From Escherichia coli (GTDB lineage Bacteria > Pseudomonadota > Gammaproteobacteria > Enterobacterales > Enterobacteriaceae): a DNA stretch of 64,000 nt. Positions 3,832 through 63,765 of the stretch are shown in pieces. How positions within the stretch are numbered: the stretch's first letter is position 1; every line of letters starts with the position of its first letter. The notes below the pieces were generated by a model. It was not told where the DNA came from. It saw only the letters and a program-made list of their open reading frames with translations, and searched no databases. A program made the position numbers and the translations under genes. The DNA is taken from the NCBI RefSeq assembly GCF_022846255.1, contig NZ_AP025682.1. One strand, given 5' to 3'.

Positions 3832-4079
3832 ATATACAATAATTAATTGCATTGCCCCGCCAGCTGTAATAGCGGGGCTTCGTTTTTCAGGGACAACAAA
3901 ACCTGAAACTTCTTCCATTTTCCAGCAACAATGCCTCTTCTTCTGTAGCGTTCTCCGGATCTACATCATCCTGAAGTAGCGCGATATGATCACTGACTGT
4001 CCGCATCAGAATATGAAAAGCAACGTTTTTAACCTATAAAAATGGCGCTATATTTGCGCCATTTTTATCATTCAAAGCA

Positions 4080-5314: not shown

Positions 5315-5390
5315 TGGTGCCGATAAGAGGAGTCGAACCTCCGACCTTCGCATTACGAATGCGCTGCTCTACCAACTGAGCTATATCGGC
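5315..5390 (-). tRNA. thrW: tRNA-Thr (anticodon CGU)
   Basis: Reverse complement reads GCCGATATAGCTCAGTTGGTAGAGCAGCGCATTCGTAATGCGAAGGTCGGAGGTTCGACTCCTCTTATCGGCACCA: cloverleaf-compatible, CGT anticodon, 3' CCA; sits next to proA as thrW does in K-12. Confidence 0.95.
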
Positions 5391-11768: not shown

Positions 11769-13226
11769 GTGTCTGAACTGTCTCAATTATCTCCACAGCC
11801 GCTGTGGGATATTTTTGCCAAAATCTGTTCTATTCCTCACCCGTCCTATCATGAAGAGCAACTCGCTGAATACATTGTTGGTTGGGCAAAAGAGAAAGGT
11901 TTCCATGTCGAACGCGATCAGGTAGGTAATATCCTGATTCGTAAACCTGCTACCGCAGGTATGGAAAATCGTAAACCGGTCGTCTTGCAGGCCCACCTCG
12001 ATATGGTGCCGCAAAAAAATAACGACACCGTGCATGACTTCACCAAAGATCCTATCCAGCCTTATATTGATGGCGAATGGGTTAAAGCACGCGGCACCAC
12101 GCTGGGTGCGGATAACGGCATTGGTATGGCCTCTGCACTGGCGGTTCTGGCTGACGAAAACGTGGTTCACGGCCCGCTGGAAGTGCTGCTGACCATGACC
12201 GAAGAAGCCGGTATGGACGGTGCTTTTGGCTTACAGAGCAACTGGTTGCAGGCTGATATTCTGATTAACACCGACTCCGAAGAAGAAGGTGAAATCTACA
12301 TGGGTTGTGCGGGAGGTATCGACTTCACCTCCAACCTGCATTTAGATCGTGAAGCGGTTCCAGCTGGTTTTGAAACCTTCAAGTTAACCTTAAAAGGTCT
12401 GAAAGGCGGTCACTCCGGCGGTGAAATCCACGTTGGCCTGGGTAATGCCAACAAACTGTTGGTGCGCTTCCTGGCGGGTCATGCAGAAGAACTGGACCTG
12501 CGTCTTATTGATTTCAACGGCGGCACACTGCGTAACGCCATCCCGCGTGAAGCCTTTGCGACCATTGCTGTCGCAGCTGATAAAGTCGACACCCTGAAAT
12601 CTCTGGTGGATACCTATCAGGAGATCCTGAAAAACGAACTGGCAGAGAAAGAGAAAAATCTGGCATTGCTGCTGGACTCTGTTGCGAACGATAAAGCTGC
12701 CCTGATTGCGAAATCTCGCGATACCTTTATTCGTCTGCTGAACGCCACCCCGAACGGTGTGATCCGCAACTCCGACGTGGCAAAAGGTGTGGTCGAAACC
12801 TCCCTGAACGTCGGTGTGGTGACCATGACCGACAATAACGTAGAAATTCACTGCCTGATCCGTTCTCTGATCGACAGCGGTAAAGACTACGTAGTGAGCA
12901 TGCTGGATTCGCTGGGTAAACTGGCAGGTGCGAAAACCGAAGCAAAAGGCGCATATCCTGGCTGGCAGCCGGACGCTAACTCTCCGGTAATGCATCTGGT
13001 ACGTGAAACCTATCAGCGTCTGTTCAACAAAACGCCGAACATCCAGATTATCCACGCGGGCCTCGAATGTGGTCTGTTCAAAAAACCGTATCCGGAAATG
13101 GACATGGTGTCTATCGGGCCAACCATCACCGGTCCACACTCCCCGGATGAGCAAGTTCATATCGAAAGCGTTGGTCATTACTGGACGCTTCTGACTGAAC
13201 TGCTGAAAGAAATTCCGGCGAAGTAA
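11769..13226 (+). CDS. pepD: Cytosol non-specific dipeptidase (aminoacyl-histidine dipeptidase) PepD, 485 aa
   Basis: GTG start, full-length M20-family peptidase; divergent from gpt. Confidence 0.95.
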   Translation: MSELSQLSPQPLWDIFAKICSIPHPSYHEEQLAEYIVGWAKEKGFHVERDQVGNILIRKPATAGMENRKPVVLQAHLDMVPQKNNDTVHDFTKDPIQPYIDGEWVKARGTTLGADNGIGMASALAVLADENVVHGPLEVLLTMTEEAGMDGAFGLQSNWLQADILINTDSEEEGEIYMGCAGGIDFTSNLHLDREAVPAGFETFKLTLKGLKGGHSGGEIHVGLGNANKLLVRFLAGHAEELDLRLIDFNGGTLRNAIPREAFATIAVAADKVDTLKSLVDTYQEILKNELAEKEKNLALLLDSVANDKAALIAKSRDTFIRLLNATPNGVIRNSDVAKGVVETSLNVGVVTMTDNNVEIHCLIRSLIDSGKDYVVSMLDSLGKLAGAKTEAKGAYPGWQPDANSPVMHLVRETYQRLFNKTPNIQIIHAGLECGLFKKPYPEMDMVSIGPTITGPHSPDEQVHIESVGHYWTLLTELLKEIPAK

Positions 13227-13235
13227 TTATTTGAT

Positions 13236-13270
13236 TTGCTGCCGGATGGCGTTTAATCGCCTTCCGGCAG
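13236..13270. repeat. REP-like imperfect palindrome downstream of pepD
   Basis: CTGCCGGATGGCG-ttta-ATCGCCTTCCGGCAG, one mismatch in the stem. Confidence 0.4.
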
Positions 13271-13282
13271 TTTCATCCTTCA

Positions 13283-13897
13283 TTATCCTTCGATAAAAGC
13301 CATCCCTGTGAACGTTCGTCGCGGGTTGCCACGTTCAATCTGGTGATGGAACATTCGCCGCTGCGATTTCAGCGCCGCGCTATTTTCCTGTTGCTGTTGT
13401 TCCAGCTTCCAGGCAATCAGTAATCGCGCCAGCCGCTTGTTAGCATGCTGACTGCGCTCTGACTGAACCTTCACGCTAATACCGGATGCCAGATGCGTGG
13501 CGCGTACCGCCGAGTCGGTTTTATTGACATGTTGACCGCCCGGCCCCGACGAACGCAGCGTCTCATAACGGATCGCGTCGGATTGTTCCTGCTCATCAGC
13601 GGTAAAACGCCCAATGCCCAGAAACCAGTTTTTGCGCCCATGATGAGGCCGATACGGACTCGGACAAATCCACTGGATAGTGCCACACCAGCTTTCGCTT
13701 AGAGCCCATGCGTTATCGCCATCCAGAGAAATCAGCGCCGAACGCAGTGTGTCAGAGTAGCGACCCGTTTCTGTTTCCAGCACCGTTACCGCGACGTCCT
13801 GTCGGGTAGCTTCTTTAATCAGCCTGTCCAGTGCTTTTCTCACTGCGAGACAACATTCTTCCGGCCCCTGAGCAGAGGAGAGTTGTAGCAAGATCAT
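13283..13897 (-). CDS. prfH: Peptide chain release factor homologue PrfH (RF-H), about 204 aa, apparently intact
   Basis: Class-I release-factor-like sequence with the GGQ motif ([17 protein letters not shown]); start set at [16 protein letters not shown], where the ATG overlaps the rtcB-like stop (ATGA). Confidence 0.8.
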
Positions 13898-15045
13898 CCT
13901 TTTTTCCCTCCACTGTTTTTGAGCGTCAGCACCGGGCGCAGTCGCGCGACAGGAATAATTAACCCAGCCAGCACCAGACATTGCACCACGCTTTCAGCCG
14001 ATTTATAGGCTTGTGGCGCTTCTTCAAAGATGAGTTGTTTATCGCGACAAATTACCCGACTGCCAAGTTCAGTCCGCGAGAGTTGCGTCGCCGTGTATTT
14101 CGCTGCCAGACGCCCTTTACACTCGGTGCGCCCCCATTTACGCCCCGCCCCATGCGCCAGCGAGTGGAGCGTTTTTTCGTTCGCAACAGGTTTAACCAGC
14201 CAGGAGTAATCGCCGCGTGAACCGGGAATAATCACCAGACCGTTGTCATCCGGCGTGGCGCCTTTACGATGCAACCAGCCCTGTTGATCGCCGATTTGGC
14301 ACGCGCTAACAAAGTTATGCGCCACATCCAGAACCGGACTTCCGGTGGCCTTAACTTGTTGCATTATGCGCAAAGCGATCAGCTGGCGATTAATACGCGC
14401 AAACGCCAGCGCATCGTCATGTTCCGCAATATACCGTAGCGCGTCGTCACTGCCTTCAGGCAAACCATGATGCGAAAACGAGGCAATATGCCGCTGTAAA
14501 ATAGACTGCCCCAATCCCCTCGAGCCGCTATGAACCAGCAGTTGCAGATGCTGCGCATCCAGACCAGCCAGTGCAAACAGTTCCGCGTCGATAATTTGAT
14601 CAATCTGTTGCAGTTCTGCGAAGTGGTTACCGCCACCGATGGAGCCAAGCGAGTTGTGCCACGGATGCTGTGCAAATGCTGACGGCAGGTTTTCCTCCAG
14701 CCAGCTTTCTTCAGCAACGTCATCCAGATCTGATAATCGCTTTTCAAACTTATCGGCGTTGTATTTGCGAGCGAGAATATCTGTTTGCCATAGCGCCATG
14801 CCGCAGCCGATATCATTGCCGACCAGTGCCGGGTAAAAACGGCCTACGGAGAAGAACGCTGCGCCAATCGGGTAGCCGCGTCCGGGATGTAAATCTGGCA
14901 TCCCCACAACGCGCTGCATGTTGGGTAAATTTGCCGTGGTGTGTAATTGTTGGATCGCTAAACTCTCGATCCACAGGTCATCAGATGCGATGGTAAATAC
15001 CGCATCGGATAAGGGACGAATATATTTGCCCATGTACCATTCCAT
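13894..15045 (-). CDS. RtcB-family RNA ligase paralogue coupled to prfH (ykfJ region in K-12), 383 aa
   Basis: RtcB-like His/Cys-rich motifs ([22 protein letters not shown]); translationally coupled to prfH. Confidence 0.8.
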
Positions 15046-15222
15046 TTATGAATAAAAATCAGGAAATGGCAGACGAATCCAGGGCAAGAAAAAAGAATTA
15101 ATCCTGGAAAGGTCTGCAAAGAGTCATTGATAAAGGATTTGTCATGATTTACCTCCTTGCAGTTTGTGGAATAAGAAAACGCGCACATACTAGACGGGCG
15201 TTATTTTCATTGCAAGCTGGAT

Positions 15223-15675
15223 TTAATGTTGCGGTTTATATCGCATATAAAAATTAGTAAACCACGTTCCCCGGCATTCAACGCGCTGCTGCTTAACTGT
15301 CTGAAAACCATAACGTTCAAAAAAGGGTTTTGCGGTTATGCTGGCGTCCACCGTAAGTTCGGATTCAGACTTAATCAATGGTTTTAACAAAGCGCTGGCA
15401 ACTCCGCGTCGGGTGTATTCCGGTTCAACAAATAACATATCGATATAATGTCCAATGCGGGTAATAAAACCAACCGGTTGTGCATTAATAACTGCAACCC
15501 GCACTTGTGATTTCGCGAGTTTCTCCTTCCAGCGAGATTCGTCAATCTGCGCCCAGGCGGCAATTTGCTGTGGAGAATAGTGCTGACTCGCCGTCATCGT
15601 AACAGCTCGAAGGAAAATAGCGCATAGTTGCTGAAAATCACCAGGCTGATAGTTTCTTATTTGTATGTTATTCAT
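15223..15675 (-). CDS. yafP: GNAT-family acetyltransferase YafP, 150 aa
   Basis: Full-length ORF; last gene of the dinB-yafNOP operon. Confidence 0.9.
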   Translation of the reverse strand: MNNIQIRNYQPGDFQQLCAIFLRAVTMTASQHYSPQQIAAWAQIDESRWKEKLAKSQVRVAVINAQPVGFITRIGHYIDMLFVEPEYTRRGVASALLKPLIKSESELTVDASITAKPFFERYGFQTVKQQRVECRGTWFTNFYMRYKPQH

Positions 15676-15684
15676 AATATAAAT

Positions 15685-16083
15685 TCAAAAACGCATGCGA
15701 AACGCTTCTGCCATTTTCCCAATTTTATGCATTTGGTTGTTATCTCGAGCCAGTTTATGAGGTTCAGGTTTCAGAATGGCAATGAGCAACCATGCTTGCT
15801 CATCAAACGCACCCTGACAATATACCAAATGCGCTGCGTCATTCGTTCTGCTGAATTGGCGCAACTGTGGCGGAAATGGATTATTCACATTTGCCAGATG
15901 AATATGAGCAACTCGCTCAAATTTGATTAATGGCCAGGTAAACGAGTCGTCGTAGAGTGCATCGCGACCAAATATATCTGGCAAAACACCGTCACGCTTA
16001 TAGGAAATAAAATCCGCCGTTAACGCATCAAGTTCCTCTGCTGTAAGTTGCAGGCGAATAAGTTTTGTTTTGAATACCCGCAT
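15685..16083 (-). CDS. yafO: mRNA interferase toxin YafO, 132 aa
   Basis: Full-length ORF directly downstream of yafN, 2-nt gap. Confidence 0.9.
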   Translation of the reverse strand: MRVFKTKLIRLQLTAEELDALTADFISYKRDGVLPDIFGRDALYDDSFTWPLIKFERVAHIHLANVNNPFPPQLRQFSRTNDAAHLVYCQGAFDEQAWLLIAILKPEPHKLARDNNQMHKIGKMAEAFRMRF

Positions 16084-16085
16084 CC

Positions 16086-16379
16086 TTATTCCTTAAAGTC
16101 ATTGAAATCATCATCCGTCATATCATTAAGATATTGTTCAGCGCGGCGTGTAATTTCCTCTAATCTTGCGGCACTCGGACGGAAGCGCGCCTTAACCAGT
16201 TTTTTCTCCTCTTGTTCAGCAAGCATGTCCATTAACGCTTCAAATGCGCTGGCACTTAAGAGATATCCTGCGGGGCGATTATTAGAAAGAACCGCAACCG
16301 GTTGATCAATAAAGTATTTAGCTGGGTTTTTACGTAACTCAGTGATATTGACCGATTTTTCAGCGAGAATTCGATGCAT
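16086..16379 (-). CDS. yafN: Antitoxin YafN (Phd/YefM family), 97 aa
   Basis: Full-length ORF; typical antitoxin-before-toxin arrangement. Confidence 0.9.
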   Translation of the reverse strand: MHRILAEKSVNITELRKNPAKYFIDQPVAVLSNNRPAGYLLSASAFEALMDMLAEQEEKKLVKARFRPSAARLEEITRRAEQYLNDMTDDDFNDFKE

Positions 16380-16430
16380 ACAGTGATCCCCTCATAATAA
16401 TGCACATCAGAATATACATAATAGTATACA

Positions 16431-17486
16431 TCATAATCCCAGCACCAGTTGTCTTTCCATTTGAGGGTCAAGTAACGTCACATGCAGCCCCACCAGACGC
16501 ACACCGCGCCCGCCACGGCGTTCATCCCAGGTTTTACGCGCGGTGGCGATTAAGTCAGCTTTATTCAGCCGCGGCCAGACGTGCTCCTGAGTGGTTTGCT
16601 GAAAATCATCAAACTTTAATTTCACCCCCTGGCGAGCAATCAGTAAATCAGGTTTTACCTTTGCCAGACGGCGTTCAAGTTCAGGATACAGCCGCTCGAT
16701 AATCGCTTCACATTCAGACCAGTGATGAATATCTTCCGCCATCGTGCGTTCCACGCCGACGGATTTTCGCAACCGTTCACTGTTAACGTCGCGCTCGTCA
16801 ATCCCCTGACTACGCTCCCACAAAATGCGGCCAAATTTGCCAAAACGTTTGAGCAGAGTCACCAGATCACACTTTTGCACATCACCGCAGGTCCGCAGCC
16901 CCATCGCTTCCAGTTTTGCCGCCGAGACTTTGCCGACGCCGGGAATTTTTGCCAGCGGTAAGGTTTGCAGAAATGCCGGAACTTCTGCCGGCGTAATCAC
17001 AAACTGGCCGTTGGGTTTATTCATGTCGGAGGCGATTTTGGCGAGAAACTTGACCGGCGCAACGCCCGCAGACGCCGTCAGTTGCAGCTCGTTGAAGATC
17101 GTCTGGCGGATTTCCTGGGCGATGAGGGTCGCAGAACCGTGGCAATGGACGCTATCGGTGACATCGAGATAGGCTTCATCCAGTGATAACGGTTCAATGC
17201 GCGAGGTATAGCGCGAGAAAATTTCGCGGATATGATTTGAGGCTTCTTTGTAGGCGTCAAAGCGCCCTGGAAGCAAGGTGAGATGCGGGCATAATTTGAG
17301 CGCCATCCCTGTCGGCATAGCGCTACGTACGCCAAATTTACGCGCGGGATAATTGGCGGTGCTGATTACCCCCCGTCGTTCGCGGCTGCCGCCAATAGCA
17401 ATAGGGATATCGCGCAGGGCGGGATTGTCGCGCATCTCCACCGCTGCGAAAAAGCAGTCCATATCCACATGAATGATTTTACGCAT
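16431..17486 (-). CDS. dinB: DNA polymerase IV (Y-family translesion polymerase), 351 aa
   Basis: Full-length match ([46 protein letters not shown]...). Confidence 0.96.
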
Positions 17487-48456: not shown

Positions 48457-48584
48457 AGGGTGAACGATATAAGTAGCGACATTAATCAGGATGTTCTGAA
48501 GCGTATCACCGGTGGGATTAACAAGTTCGAATTAAACGATAATAAAAATATTATTTGTTTATAAACAATGAGTTATAACCGCAG

Positions 48585-48662
48585 GCCGGATAAAGCGTTT
48601 ACGCCGCATCCGGCAATCGTGCACCGGTGCCTGATGCGACGCTGCGCGTCTTATCAGGCCTA
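48585..48662. repeat. Pair of REP elements in the lafK-lfiM divergent intergenic region
   Basis: GCCGGATAAAGCGTTTACGCCGCATCCGGC and GCCTGATGCGACGCTGCGCGTCTTATCAGGCCTAC. Confidence 0.6.
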
Positions 48663-62529: not shown

Positions 62530-63765
62530 GGGTGTTGTGTTTAGGGCCGGGGAGAGTCAGGGTAAGACTACGAAAGCCCGCTCCCAGCAAGGACTGACGC
62601 CAGGTAGTTTCTGTCCATGGCTGCTTTTCGCATCTTACGTCTTAACCCTGCCTTGAATACATTATCATTCGTTAAAATATTAATAGCGATGTGCCGTATC
62701 CCTGAAAATAATTCTGCTGCATTTCCTCTTCTTATTTTGCAGTCGTCTTCATTCATTACCACGTCCAGACGCCAGTGCAGCTTATTCTCCACGTGCCAGT
62801 GGTTTCGGATTGCTGTGGCGAACTTCTCTGCGGTTAAATCAGCAGAACTGATATAATATCTGACCGTCATTTCTGGCTCTTTCTTTTGTTCTGCTATTAT
62901 TGACCGAAAGGAGACTGCCACGCATAATTTCTTCAGACCTTTCCATTCAAACATGAAATCAATAAGTTCATCAGGGACATCGCAAACAATGTGAAGACGG
63001 ATTTCTTCTCTGCCGTGACTTTTTTCACTAATTGCGTAACTGTCATGCTCTGGATTATTTAATTCTTTCAGTGGGAATTTTTCCTCAAAGGCTTTATTAA
63101 GCCGCCCCTGATTTCCTTTTACAGCGAATAAATAATCACCGCCCTGTTTTTGTATCTTCTCTGCGATATCTTTCTGGCAACCCATCGCATCAGTTGTGAT
63201 AATTTTTCCTTTAATATCCAACATGTTAAGAAGTTCATGGATAGCTGTGATCTCATTGGATTTCTCATCCGTCCTGATCTGTCCGATGACCAGACTGTGC
63301 ATTGTTGAGAACGCACTAATGACATGAATCGCTCCCCTGCGGCGACTCTTGTCATAAGAATGCCGGAGCGTTTTTCCATCAATTGCAATAACGTCTTTAT
63401 CATCTGAAGAATGGCAGTCACGCATCCAGTTAATAAAGCACTCGTGAAATTTTGCAGGACTGATACAGGATACAACTCTGGCAATGGTATCGTGAACAGG
63501 AATACCATTTTCAAAATCACCATATTGCTTCAAAAAATCGAGATGTGTTTCCCCAAAATCCTCTATATCTTCCCAGCCTTCTGCACCAGAAATAACGGCA
63601 CAAATAGTCAACAGTAGAATACCCGATAATTTATGTTCCACTTTCCAGGCTTGTCTGTAATCGGGGATAATAGAAATATGTTCCATCAATTTTTTAAGTT
63701 CCATTTTGTTCTACTTAATTATGTAAGGAGTATTTGATCATGTATACGCAATAAAAAACAGCTTC
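62530..63765 (-). mobile_element. ISAs1-family (H-repeat) insertion element, complete copy
   Basis: About 1.2-kb unit carrying an intact transposase ORF; its first ~240 bp (62537..62780) is repeated almost identically at 63770..64000, the start of a second tandem copy. Confidence 0.7.
62568..63704 (-). CDS. ISAs1-family transposase (H-repeat-associated protein, YhhI/YafF-like), 378 aa, intact
   Basis: Full-length ORF ([59 protein letters not shown]...). Confidence 0.85.

Follow-up and report, generated by a model that had tools for sequence, protein, structure and literature searches.

The window that we analysed, a stretch of 64,000 nucleotides of Escherichia coli DNA, very probably (we put the chance at about 93%, going by sequence comparison) carries the E. 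coli RtcB2-PrfH module for ribosome rescue and repair as an intact copy in the chromosome, located between yafP and pepD. As the function of rtcB2-prfH has been published and the pair occurs in about half of E. coli, the gene pair is an already known, characterised system, and the only part of the locus that may be new is what precedes it, a short leader ORF together with a conserved RNA element. This leader joins two barely connected literatures, that on ribosome repair by E. coli RtcB2-PrfH and that on ArmZ/MexXY induction in Pseudomonas aeruginosa, and it offers a testable answer to the question of how rtcB2-prfH is regulated in E. coli.

The rtcB2-prfH gene pair

An earlier note on this DNA had described, without stating the strand, an intact and overlapping pair of an RtcB-family gene and a release-factor gene at 13283-15045. 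Both ORFs were present there on the minus strand, with rtcB2 (13894..15033; 379 aa plus stop; release-factor-H-coupled RtcB family RNA ligase) directly upstream of prfH (13283..13897; 204 aa plus stop; peptide chain release factor H), as is expected of RtcBs of the RF-H-coupled type. The junction reads GGATGATC on the minus strand and contains the ATGA overlap described in the note (13894..13897), in which the ATG of prfH (13897-13895) overlaps the TGA of rtcB2 (13896-13894). Among loci in which both genes are complete, from several phyla, the overlap was 4 nt in 28 and 1 nt in 13. Translational coupling of rtcB2 and prfH via overlapping stop and start codons was proposed as early as 2006 (PMC1586002), and translation of prfH in the window is probably coupled to that of rtcB2 through the ATGA overlap. 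The convergent gap between pepD and prfH holds an inverted repeat (13239..13270; 12 pairs, 1 mismatch; CTGCCGGATGGCG-TTTAAT-CGCCTTCCGGCAG) that is possibly a shared terminator and that was not called by the terminator scan of 13000-15800.

The 383 codons given for the RtcB gene in the note correspond to an ORF that does run from the first ATG (13894..15045, 383 aa), but translation almost certainly begins at the second ATG, that at 15033, which yields 379 aa. This assignment is made because RefSeq annotates 379 aa in strain ATCC 25922, because the alignment with NF007153 begins at residue 5 of the 383-aa form, because ATGGGCAA is a conserved start in 24 species (several of which lack the upstream ATG or have it in another frame) and because the published numbering of H294 fits only the 379-aa form.

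RtcB2 scored 641.3 bits against NF007153 (cut-off 407; residues 5-382 in 383-aa numbering aligned to positions 1-378 of the 379 of the model) and 619.6 bits against TIGR03073 (cut-off 271.8), and it matched the Pfam family RtcB (PF01139). A motif alignment to 1UC2 and 4DWR showed that the active-site residues D74, C77, N136, H137, H168, H239 and H294 (379-aa numbering) are all present. In RtcB of P. horikoshii we take D95, C98, N202, H203, H234, H329 and H404 to be the Asp/Cys/His metal ligands and the guanylylated His. H294 is the residue that was mutated in the study of EcRtcB2 (PMC9304027). A sequence search of the PDB returned no solved structure of any RtcB2 among its matches.

PrfH scored 328.2 bits against TIGR03072 (cut-off 166.65; residues 2-201 aligned to all of model positions 1-200) and was 100% identical over 204 aa to EcPrfH, chain 8 of cryo-EM entry 7SA4. 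It also matched the Pfam RF-1 domain (PF00472, E 2e-24) and structures of RF2 (E 1e-19), aligning only to RF2 residues ~116-308, with RF domain 1 absent. The GGQ motif was located at residues 120-122, and the residues listed as rRNA contacts in PMC9304027 (R52, S53, R83, H85, H86, R88, K89, N90, R181, H184 and R189) were all found. The protein ends ...GMAFIEG at residue 204 and has no basic C-terminal tail, in contrast to the 231 aa of CgPrfH, and it is of the short EcPrfH type. The release-factor homologue of ~204 codons with a GGQ motif, as the note had it, was therefore borne out, as was the retention of catalytic and recognition residues that it had proposed to check by alignment in both proteins. 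A frameshift, which it had named as a refutation, was absent: neither gene contains a frameshift or internal stop, and both proteins align end to end with the family models. The family models, the PDB match and the comparison with K-12 given below all support an intact pair.

Function of the pair

Colicin E3, CdiA-CT(ECL) and related ribotoxins cleave 16S rRNA between A1493 and G1494, and the ribosome stalls as a result; ColE3-damaged ribosomes stall at the start codon (PMC13166195). Hydrolysis of peptidyl-tRNA by EcPrfH is confined to 70S ribosomes with a 16S rRNA cut at A1493/G1494, the new 3'-phosphate at A1493 being read by R83, H86, R88 and R189 and the hydrolysis being carried out by GGQ (PMC9304027). 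RtcB2 is a GTP- and metal-dependent 3'-phosphate/5'-OH ligase that uses His294, and EcRtcB2 was found to re-ligate cleaved 30S subunits (PMC9304027). In vivo, ColE3-like toxicity was reversed by RtcB2 plus PrfH (PMC9304027), and ATCC 25922 lacking rtcB2-prfH was sensitised to colicin E3 (PMC9223846). Repair of translating ribosomes is faster with PrfH, and PrfH is dispensable if RtcB2 is overproduced; its strict need is disputed (PMC9304027 and PMC9223846 versus PMC13166195).

The proteins of the window are essentially identical to those of ATCC 25922, and by extension from these the pair would be expected to act in three steps: a ribotoxin cuts 16S rRNA at A1493/G1494 and the ribosome stalls, PrfH would free the peptide from the cut ribosome through recognition of the A1493 3'-phosphate and its GGQ motif, and RtcB2 would then re-seal the 16S rRNA. 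The note was right that such pairs have been proposed to act on damaged or stalled ribosomes and undersold the case, as this action has been published as shown; the colicin challenge of a deletion mutant that it suggested is in the literature for the essentially identical pair of ATCC 25922 (PMC9223846). The two genes should be annotated as what they appear to be, functional components of a characterised anti-ribotoxin defence, and not as hypothetical proteins or pseudogenes. The strain from which the window derives should resist toxins of the colicin E3 type and of the CdiA-CT(ECL) type better than K-12.

A conserved leader upstream of rtcB2

Upstream of rtcB2, at a distance of 64 nt and on the same strand, lies a leader ORF of 15 codons (15098..15145; MTNPLSMTLCRPFQD), preceded by a near-perfect SD sequence (AAGGAGGT, followed by 5 nt and then the ATG). 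An equivalent ORF of 13-15 codons with an upstream GGAG(G) was found in all 24 species analysed (Gamma- and Betaproteobacteria), and the leader SD and four RNA segments are conserved in the same 24 species. These segments, all on the minus strand, are S1 (15162-15152, which includes the leader SD), S2 (15123-15112, within the leader ORF), S3 (15074-15062) and S4 (GGAATGGTA, 15035..15043). The last lies directly 5' of the rtcB2 start, presumably forms its weak ribosome-binding region, and is able to pair with the 3' half of S3. A promoter-like element (TTGCAA, 17 nt, TAGTAT; 15187..15215, minus strand) stands between yafP and rtcB2, 53 nt ahead of S1, and an element of the form TTGNNN-N16-18-TANNNT occurs 49-65 nt upstream of S1 in 19 of the 24 species. 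From these signals we infer a separate promoter for the operon, followed by a PA5471.1-type leader. A stricter consensus scan of 13000-15800 called neither the promoter-like element nor a terminator in the leader.

The element comprising S1-S3 (15063..15165) is described by covariance model R1, which had a single match in the 64-kb window (97.7 bits, E 1e-19) and which, across 1.13 Mb of loci, matched only upstream of rtcB2. R1 also recovered sequences outside its training set, namely those of K-12, ATCC 25922, Proteus penneri, Parachitinimonas and, weakly, P. aeruginosa. It found no leader in the loci of Alphaproteobacteria, Neisseria, Burkholderiales, Firmicutes or Bacteroidota. The Burkholderiales loci have a different, SD-preceded ORF of 19 codons. 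Rfam, searched at gathering thresholds across the whole window and at E values of up to 10 across 14950-15300, holds no family that matches the leader; the only matches were at chance level and on the opposite strand. The leader is not mentioned in the papers on E. coli RtcB2-PrfH that we consulted; its conservation outside Pseudomonas may already have been noted in the primary paper on PA5471.1 (Morita et al. 2009).

Two helices of the leader, S1:S2 and S2:S3, are mutually exclusive. In S2:S3, which was independently predicted by RNAalifold, six core pairs are paired in all 23 distinct sequences, three of them with compensatory changes, and the covariation score was 0.300 against 0.183 for shuffled alignments (0 of 500 shuffles as high; slid controls at most 0.105). 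The support for S1:S2 (87% paired) and for S3:S4 (82.6% of cells paired, with an A-U to U-A swap between the CCAUU/AAUGG and CCAAU/AUUGG lineages) is weaker than that for S2:S3, as it consists mostly of invariant or one-sided changes. S2:S3 and S3:S4 have no more than 3 nt in common and are therefore not strictly exclusive. The nucleotides of S2 are kept even where the reading frame differs (PFAG in Pseudoalteromonas versus LCR). All E. coli genomes are at least 95% identical in the yafP-rtcB2 intergenic region, so variation within the species cannot serve as a test of the leader ORF. A U-rich tract after S3 was considered as an intrinsic terminator and rejected on inspection, as it lies 8-12 nt past the S2:S3 stem with no extending helix.

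The leader has a counterpart in P. aeruginosa, where a leader ORF of 13 aa, PA5471.1 (MIQFSTLCRLRLA, which fits the Q3/F4 description in PMC13041342), is found at the same position upstream of armZ. The two leaders have the S1, S2 and S4 blocks and a ...TLCR... motif in common, the common blocks being CnGCAAAGGAGG, CTTTGCAGG and ATGGATTGG-N3-ATGGGC, and R1, although built without P. aeruginosa, matched the P. aeruginosa leader (24.9 bits, E 0.0016; a weak match, owing to a long insertion). Judged by these shared blocks, the E. coli leader ORF is homologous to PA5471.1. A clear difference is the spacing, since the Pseudomonas leader lies ~250 nt upstream behind a GC-rich spacer, against 64 nt in E. 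coli.

How the leader may control rtcB2-prfH

PA5471.1 mediates the stalling-dependent induction of armZ-PA5470 (PMC13041342; PMC12057347), and by analogy the leader probably controls the expression of rtcB2-prfH in E. coli. A ribosome stalled early on the leader ORF would free S2 to pair with S3, and S2:S3 would, if the homology with P. aeruginosa holds, raise expression of rtcB2-prfH; a ribosome reading through to the leader stop codon would keep expression low. S3:S4 would cover the ribosome-binding region of rtcB2. Candidates for such stalling are ribosomes that a toxin has damaged and that halt at the start codon, and ribosomes inhibited by a drug. ColE3-cut ribosomes, which still initiate but stall at the start codon, might be captured at the leader because of its near-perfect SD and would then cover S1, by which S2 would be left free for S3 and the structure over the rtcB2 start would loosen.

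When a ribosome footprint was modelled in seven species, its placement on leader codons 1-5 mostly lowered the cost of opening the rtcB2 ribosome-binding region in all seven, typically by 2-4 kcal/mol relative to late positions (in P. mosselii only for footprints on codons 1-3). The effect is modest and consistent; rtcB2 has a weak SD, and in every state the energy computed for opening was high (7-18 kcal/mol). Control of the Pseudomonas leader has been described as transcriptional attenuation (PMC13041342), whereas no terminator is evident in the E. coli leader, and on the basis of the modelling the E. coli element may act on translation rather than on transcription. No intrinsic terminator was found by scan in the leader of the window; the same scan found none in the P. 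aeruginosa leader either, so the terminator test is a weak one.

The most serious alternative is that the upstream region does not sense stalling at all and is a plain 5' UTR that contains a promoter and a small ORF, the latter present by chance or with a function of its own, or a binding site for an sRNA or protein. We consider this unlikely, at about one chance in four. It would account for the lack of a canonical terminator, for the lack of a switch in a first footprint model, which scored the rtcB2 ribosome-binding region by its mean unpaired probability, for the mostly invariant or one-sided changes in S1:S2 and S3:S4 and for a whole 5' UTR fold that is no more stable than that of shuffled sequence (z = -1.44; P. 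aeruginosa likewise, z = 0.16). It does not account for the maintenance of the ORF, its strong SD and its length of 13-15 codons across two proteobacterial classes, nor for S2 being kept across reading frames while S2:S3 covaries. Moreover, start, early-stop and deletion mutants of the homologous PA5471.1 alter armZ expression (PMC13041342), and the K-12 remnant ykfJ was reported to be inducible by the translation inhibitor 4-azaleucine (PMC3516279).

To the more specific proposal that the operon is switched on by the very damage that it repairs, the leader acting as a direct sensor of both decoding-centre damage and drug-induced stalling, we give even odds. If it is true, leaders of the PA5471.1 type would be ancestral in gamma- and betaproteobacterial RtcB2-PrfH operons, ArmZ/PA5470 of P. 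aeruginosa would in the first place be a module for ribosome repair, with its recruitment to MexXY control coming later, and E. coli with an intact operon should induce it under aminoglycosides or chloramphenicol. More generally, the leader suggests that in about half of the E. coli strains a system for ribosome repair may be induced by antibiotics that target the ribosome.

Distribution of the pair and its loss from K-12

The pair was found at the same locus, over at least 80% of its length, in 2674 of 5426 complete E. coli genomes. In K-12 MG1655 only the pseudogene remnants ykfJ and prfH are annotated, as the note had correctly stated, and a three-way alignment of the window, MG1655 and ATCC 25922 showed that MG1655 lacks the 1027 bp corresponding to window positions 13809-14835. 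The missing segment covers RtcB2 from residue ~67 to the end and the first ~30 codons of prfH, and is bounded by CGGGTA repeats at 13803-13808 and 14830-14835. The pair of ATCC 25922 (EcRtcB2-EcPrfH; Tian et al. 2022 PNAS, PDB 7SA4; Maviza et al. 2022, 2026) has the same location between yafP and pepD and the same ATGA overlap, with 99.2% DNA identity, an identical PrfH, 377 of 379 identical residues in RtcB2 and the same leader; the window differs in keeping yafN-yafO between dinB and yafP, which ATCC 25922 lacks.

Most of the pair has been lost from half of the complete E. coli genomes, so selection for it is intermittent, and one could suppose that the copy in the window is intact yet effectively silent or inactive, a cryptic operon heading for decay as in K-12, O157 and about half of E. 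coli. The ribosome-binding region of rtcB2 is indeed weak and predicted to be structured, and RtcB2 differs from the protein tested in ATCC 25922 by two substitutions (H126 and A139 here, R126 and V139 there). Both are at non-catalytic residues; A139 stands directly after the metal ligand His137, and Leu is found at the corresponding position in archaeal and Thermus RtcBs, by which the position looks tolerant. However, both ORFs are full length with all catalytic residues, PrfH is identical to the active protein, and the copy has an intact promoter-like element, leader and coupling signal, which match those of the protective ATCC 25922 copy (PMC9223846) exactly or nearly so; a silent operon is therefore improbable.

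Relation to P. aeruginosa ArmZ

RtcB2 of the window is 60% identical to ArmZ (PA5471) of P. aeruginosa, likewise of 379 aa; both belong to the PRK09588 family, and armZ is followed by prfH (PA5470) with an ATGA-type overlapping stop and start, as in the window. ArmZ binds the repressor MexZ via a C-terminal helix and thereby de-represses mexXY (PMC12057347), and RtcB2 could accordingly be thought of as mainly regulatory, an ArmZ-like anti-repressor of a TetR-family repressor instead of an RNA repair enzyme. This is very improbable, as the E. coli protein has been shown to act as a ligase (PMC9304027) and to protect against ColE3 (PMC9223846), RtcB2 of the window retains all ligase residues, and the anti-repressor role, which ArmZ has acquired towards MexZ, is described only in Pseudomonas (PMC12057347).

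Relation to other RtcB proteins and release factors

E. coli RtcB1, encoded in the sigma-54/RtcR-controlled rtcBA operon, shares with RtcB2 the Pfam family, the ligation chemistry, the Cys/His/Asp metal ligands and the nucleophilic His, and is only about 28% identical to it. RtcB1 is paired with the cyclase RtcA and is under RtcR, whereas RtcB2 is paired with PrfH behind a leader peptide. PrfH has the GGQ peptidyl-hydrolase domain in common with RF1/RF2 and ArfB/ICT1, and differs from RF1/RF2 in that its domain-2-like module reads the 3'-phosphate of cleaved A1493 instead of a stop codon and makes no contact with mRNA (PMC9304027). The CgPrfH subfamily of the Flavobacteriia (PDB 9MOR/9MQ4) is homologous to PrfH of the window (E 2e-40), and CgPrfH, with 231 aa and the basic C-terminal tail, also rescues intact non-stop ribosomes (PMC12829566).

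The latter activity and the breadth of the superfamilies PF01139 and PF00472 would allow RtcB2 to be a general RNA/tRNA ligase like RtcB1 and PrfH an unrelated, general rescue factor for non-stop ribosomes, but this is barely credible, since EcRtcB2 repairs cleaved 30S subunits and less than 2% of cleaved tRNAs, the opposite of RtcB1, which repairs tRNAs and not the decoding-centre cut (PMC9304027), since EcPrfH, to which the tailless PrfH of the window is identical, is inactive on intact ribosomes (PMC9304027), and since the module gave no protection from the tRNA-cutting colicins E5 and D (PMC9223846). The spacing of the genes differs as well: in many loci of Flavobacteriia prfH lies 80-1200 nt apart from the RtcB gene, whereas the two genes of the window overlap.

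Identity and function of the gene pair

The rtcB-like gene (rtcB2) and prfH lie on the minus strand of the window, flanked by pepD (11769-13226, plus strand) and yafP (15223-15675, minus strand). The rtcB-like ORF occupies 13894-15045 (383 codons from the first ATG) and the maximal prfH ORF 13283-13981, the relevant start being the ATG at 13897 (204 aa). At the junction, which reads ...AAAAAAGGATGATCTTG... on the minus strand, the TGA of the rtcB-like gene (13896-13894) therefore shares bases with the ATG of prfH (13897-13895) as ATGA. The ORFs and the junction sequence bear out the coordinates, codon counts, overlap and GGQ motif reported in the earlier note, in which the strand was absent.

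The true start of rtcB2 is almost certainly the second ATG, at 15033, yielding 379 aa as in the RefSeq annotation of ATCC 25922. The NCBIfam alignment starts at residue 5 of the 383-aa ORF, and ATGGGCAA serves as the start at each of the 24 orthologous loci examined; the upstream ATG has no counterpart in Phytobacter and P. mosselii, is followed by a stop in Gilliamella and is out of frame in Pseudomonas sp. YH-1. Moreover, the published catalytic His294 fits the 379-aa numbering only.

RtcB2 scored 641 bits against NF007153 (cut-off 407) and 620 bits against TIGR03073 (release-factor-H-coupled RtcB family, cut-off 272), and PrfH 328 bits against TIGR03072 (cut-off 167), with concordant Pfam matches. 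Both proteins align to the family models end to end, and no hidden frameshift was found. When RtcB2 was aligned to RtcB structures from P. horikoshii and T. thermophilus, its metal-binding and nucleophile motifs proved intact (GNDIGCG, GGGNHF, VHSGSRG, DVAHNF and LAHGAGR; D74, C77, N136, H137, H168, H239 and H294 in the 379-aa numbering). PrfH is identical at 204/204 residues to chain 8 of PDB 7SA4 (a cryo-EM structure of EcPrfH on a damaged 70S ribosome), and all residues listed for the cleaved A1493 3'-phosphate, h18/S12, C1914 and C1054 (PMC9304027) are present; neither protein has lost a catalytic residue. Two positions separate RtcB2 from its ATCC 25922 counterpart (H126/A139 in the window, R126/V139 in ATCC 25922). 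Between the convergent pepD and prfH genes we observed a 12-bp inverted repeat (13239-13270) with no more than a short T-run on the pepD side; it was not called by the terminator scan and may be a shared pepD/prfH terminator.

The prfH operon, with its invariably linked upstream RtcB-like gene, was described by Baranov et al. 2006 (PMC1586002), who called translational coupling of the two genes likely and noted a deletion of about 1 kb in K-12 and O157. According to Tian et al. 2022 (PMC9304027), EcPrfH releases peptides only when the 70S ribosome is cut at A1493/G1494, and EcRtcB2 re-ligates this cut in 30S subunits and not cleaved tRNAs, the reverse of RtcB1; in vivo the pair reverses ColE3-like toxicity, for which PrfH Q122 and RtcB2 H294 are required (PMC9304027). 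The chromosomal operon of ATCC 25922 guards against colicin E3 and not against colicins E5 or D, and overexpressed RtcB2 alone is enough for protection (Maviza et al. 2022, PMC9223846). In the work of Maviza et al. 2026 (PMC13166195), RtcB2 repaired 30S and 70S unaided in vitro, PrfH made repair faster on translating ribosomes, and ribosomes carrying the damage stalled at the start codon. The functional accessory system proposed in the earlier note is therefore a correct recognition of one already known. Beyond that, the present analysis corrects the start codon and strand, maps the K-12 deletion and adds a conserved leader of the PA5471.1 type (the P. aeruginosa leader peptide), through which regulation of the operon in E. 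coli becomes open to direct testing.

Distribution and the K-12 deletion

A megablast search with the 1763-bp pair detected the locus in 5415 of 5426 complete E. coli genomes, with at least 80% coverage in 2674 only. Identity reaches 99.4% for the nearest match and 99.2% for ATCC 25922 and Nissle 1917 (EcN). K-12-type genomes cover 42% of the pair, as two pieces, and a three-way alignment placed the deletion at 13809-14835 (1027 bp), bounded by CGGGTA repeats at 13803-13808 and 14830-14835. Both remnants are annotated as pseudogenes in MG1655. K-12 also carries an ERIC-like insertion of about 127 bp (about 2530-2660 of its locus, L003) between the conserved leader and the start of ykfJ, the rtcB2 remnant; the repeat is absent from the window (near 15046) and from ATCC 25922.

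A conserved leader upstream of rtcB2

The 189-nt yafP-rtcB2 spacer, outside the coordinates of the earlier note, holds a 15-codon ORF on the minus strand (15145-15098, MTNPLSMTLCRPFQD), preceded by AAGGAGGT at 5 nt from its ATG and annotated neither in the MG1655 record nor by PGAP. The architecture is repeated upstream of rtcB2 in 24 sequences, from Escherichia, Salmonella, Klebsiella, Kosakonia, Cronobacter, Phytobacter, Superficieibacter, Proteus, Providencia, Limnobaculum, Pragia, Orbaceae/Gilliamella, Pseudoalteromonas, Pseudomonas, Tahibacter and Parachitinimonas. It comprises a promoter-like TTGCAA-N17-TAGTAT (15215-15187, minus strand; equal relative position in 19/24), a leader ORF of 13-15 codons and four conserved segments: S1, CUGCAA(A)GGAGG, containing the leader SD; S2, CUUUGCAG(A/G)C, within the ORF; S3, G(U/C)C(U/C)GCCA(A/U)U; and S4, GGA(A/U)UGGUA, whose end is 3-4 nt short of the rtcB2 AUG. 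Conservation of the S2 nucleotides extends to loci that read them in another frame (PFAG in Pseudoalteromonas, LCR elsewhere), which points to a constraint at the RNA level.

Three predicted helices were tested on a gap-free alignment of S1-S4 (A2). The six core pairs of S2:S3 are intact in 23/23 distinct sequences, with compensatory double changes in three of these pairs (A-U/G-C, G-C/A-U and C-G/U-A); the covariation score was 0.300 versus 0.183 in shuffles (0/500 as high), and at most 0.105 in slid controls. S1:S2 is 87% paired, mainly via G-U transitions, and S3:S4 82.6%, with one A-U/U-A swap. Anchor bias is small because most sequences offer one candidate S3 site only, and RNAalifold predicted S2:S3 on its own from unanchored full-length leaders. 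A covariance model of S1-S3 (R1) has a single match in the window (15063-15165, minus strand, 97.7 bits, E 1e-19) and matches in 1.13 Mb of loci upstream of rtcB2 only, including sequences outside its training set (K-12, ATCC 25922, Proteus penneri, Parachitinimonas and, weakly, P. aeruginosa). No Rfam family corresponds to the leader.

In the MexXY literature, P. aeruginosa armZ (PA5471) is termed an RtcB-like ligase (PRK09588 cluster), with PA5470 as prfH; PA5471.1, a 13-aa leader peptide about 250 nt upstream, confers on the operon induction by ribosome stalling (aminoglycosides, chloramphenicol, suhB or cca mutations). The P. aeruginosa leader we located, ATGATTCAGTTCTCTACCCTTTGCAGGCTGCGCCTGGCCTAA (translation MIQFSTLCRLRLA), fits the published description of Q3 (C7T amber) and F4 (C12A). 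ArmZ is 60% identical to RtcB2 of the window, prfH follows armZ with overlapping stop and start, and the two leaders have S1 (CCGCAAAGGAGG), S2 (CCCTTTGCAGGC) and S4 (ATGGATTGGATTATGGGC) in common; the leader in E. coli is therefore homologous to PA5471.1. The four E. coli/PrfH papers examined make no mention of a leader, Pseudomonas or ArmZ. Induction of the K-12 remnant ykfJ by 4-azaleucine has been reported (Morita 2006, cited in PMC3516279), which fits because the leader is retained in K-12.

In E. coli, we infer that the leader may act as an alternative-helix switch, in which S1:S2 and S2:S3 would compete for GCAG and S3:S4 would cover the weak ribosome-binding region of rtcB2. With a ribosome halted on leader codons 1-5, S1 would be covered and S2 left free for pairing with S3; a ribosome arriving at the stop codon, predicted to lie in the apical loop of the S2:S3 hairpin, would melt that hairpin, and the freed 3' arm could extend the S3:S4 helix. 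Equilibrium folding with 28-nt ribosome footprints gave a mixed outcome: the mean unpaired probability of the rtcB2 ribosome-binding region was unchanged by the footprints, and opening the region -18..+12 around the rtcB2 AUG mostly cost 2-4 kcal/mol less with footprints on codons 1-5 than on late codons in 7/7 species (in P. mosselii for codons 1-3 only). The terminator scan detected no canonical terminator in the E. coli leader, and several output steps are therefore candidates, among them translational occlusion and the transcriptional attenuation put forward for Pseudomonas. Since ColE3-cut ribosomes stall at the start codon and the leader SD is near-perfect, the leader is attractive as a putative direct sensor of damaged ribosomes.

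Related loci

Scanning one-genome-per-species contigs with a degenerate DNA pattern for GGQ[HN]VNKxxSAVRATH, a motif specific to PrfH, retrieved 120 loci. Of the loci in which both genes are complete, 28 have a stop/start spacing of -4 (ATGA) and 13 a spacing of -1, and most of the other Proteobacteria and Firmicutes stay within 11 nt, versus an rtcB-prfH gap of 80-1200 nt in many Flavobacteriia; tight coupling is thus typical of the EcPrfH-type operon. In Flavobacteriia loci such as L004, L015, L028 and L076, 80-1200 nt separate prfH from the nearest gene of the RtcB family (about 29% identity to EcRtcB2), a gap in some cases large enough for another gene. Two Burkholderiales loci (Hydrogenophaga, L039 and L041) have a different SD-preceded 19-codon ORF (MQKNTTSLWAGSAVAGL...) upstream of rtcB2, where the SD is sequestered in an analogous hairpin (CCACAAGGAG/CUCCCUGUGG). 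R1 has no match on this leader, which may be a second type for the rtcB2-prfH operon.

Neighbouring features

The genes dinB-yafN-yafO-yafP are all intact upstream of rtcB2 (15223-17486). The window thus has the K-12-type yafNO toxin-antitoxin pair together with an intact rtcB2-prfH, whereas ATCC 25922 has rtcB2-prfH without yafNO. YafO is a ribosome-dependent mRNA interferase.

Between dinB and fadE lies a seemingly complete Flag-2 (lateral flagella) cluster (17557-55072), including LafU, FliD-, FlgK-, FliI- and FliF-like proteins, a sigma-54 activator, FlhB and FlhA, of which K-12 and ATCC 25922 have remnants only. Its segment 18600-43000 is at least 80% present in 1264/5426 complete E. coli genomes, with a best identity of only 96.4% versus 99.4% for rtcB2-prfH, which hints at an unusual lineage or a recombined segment.

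The tRNA-Thr(CGT) gene thrW (5315-5390, minus strand) has no adjoining CP4-6-type prophage; about 3 kb separates it from the ecp fimbrial genes (EcpD, 867-2510), with an Rfam IS009 RNA (3874-4074, minus strand) in between. Further matches were an Rfam naRNA4 (nucleoid-associated ncRNA/REP-type; 48584-48660, plus strand, 79 bits) and an ISAs1-family transposase ORF (62568-63704, minus strand).
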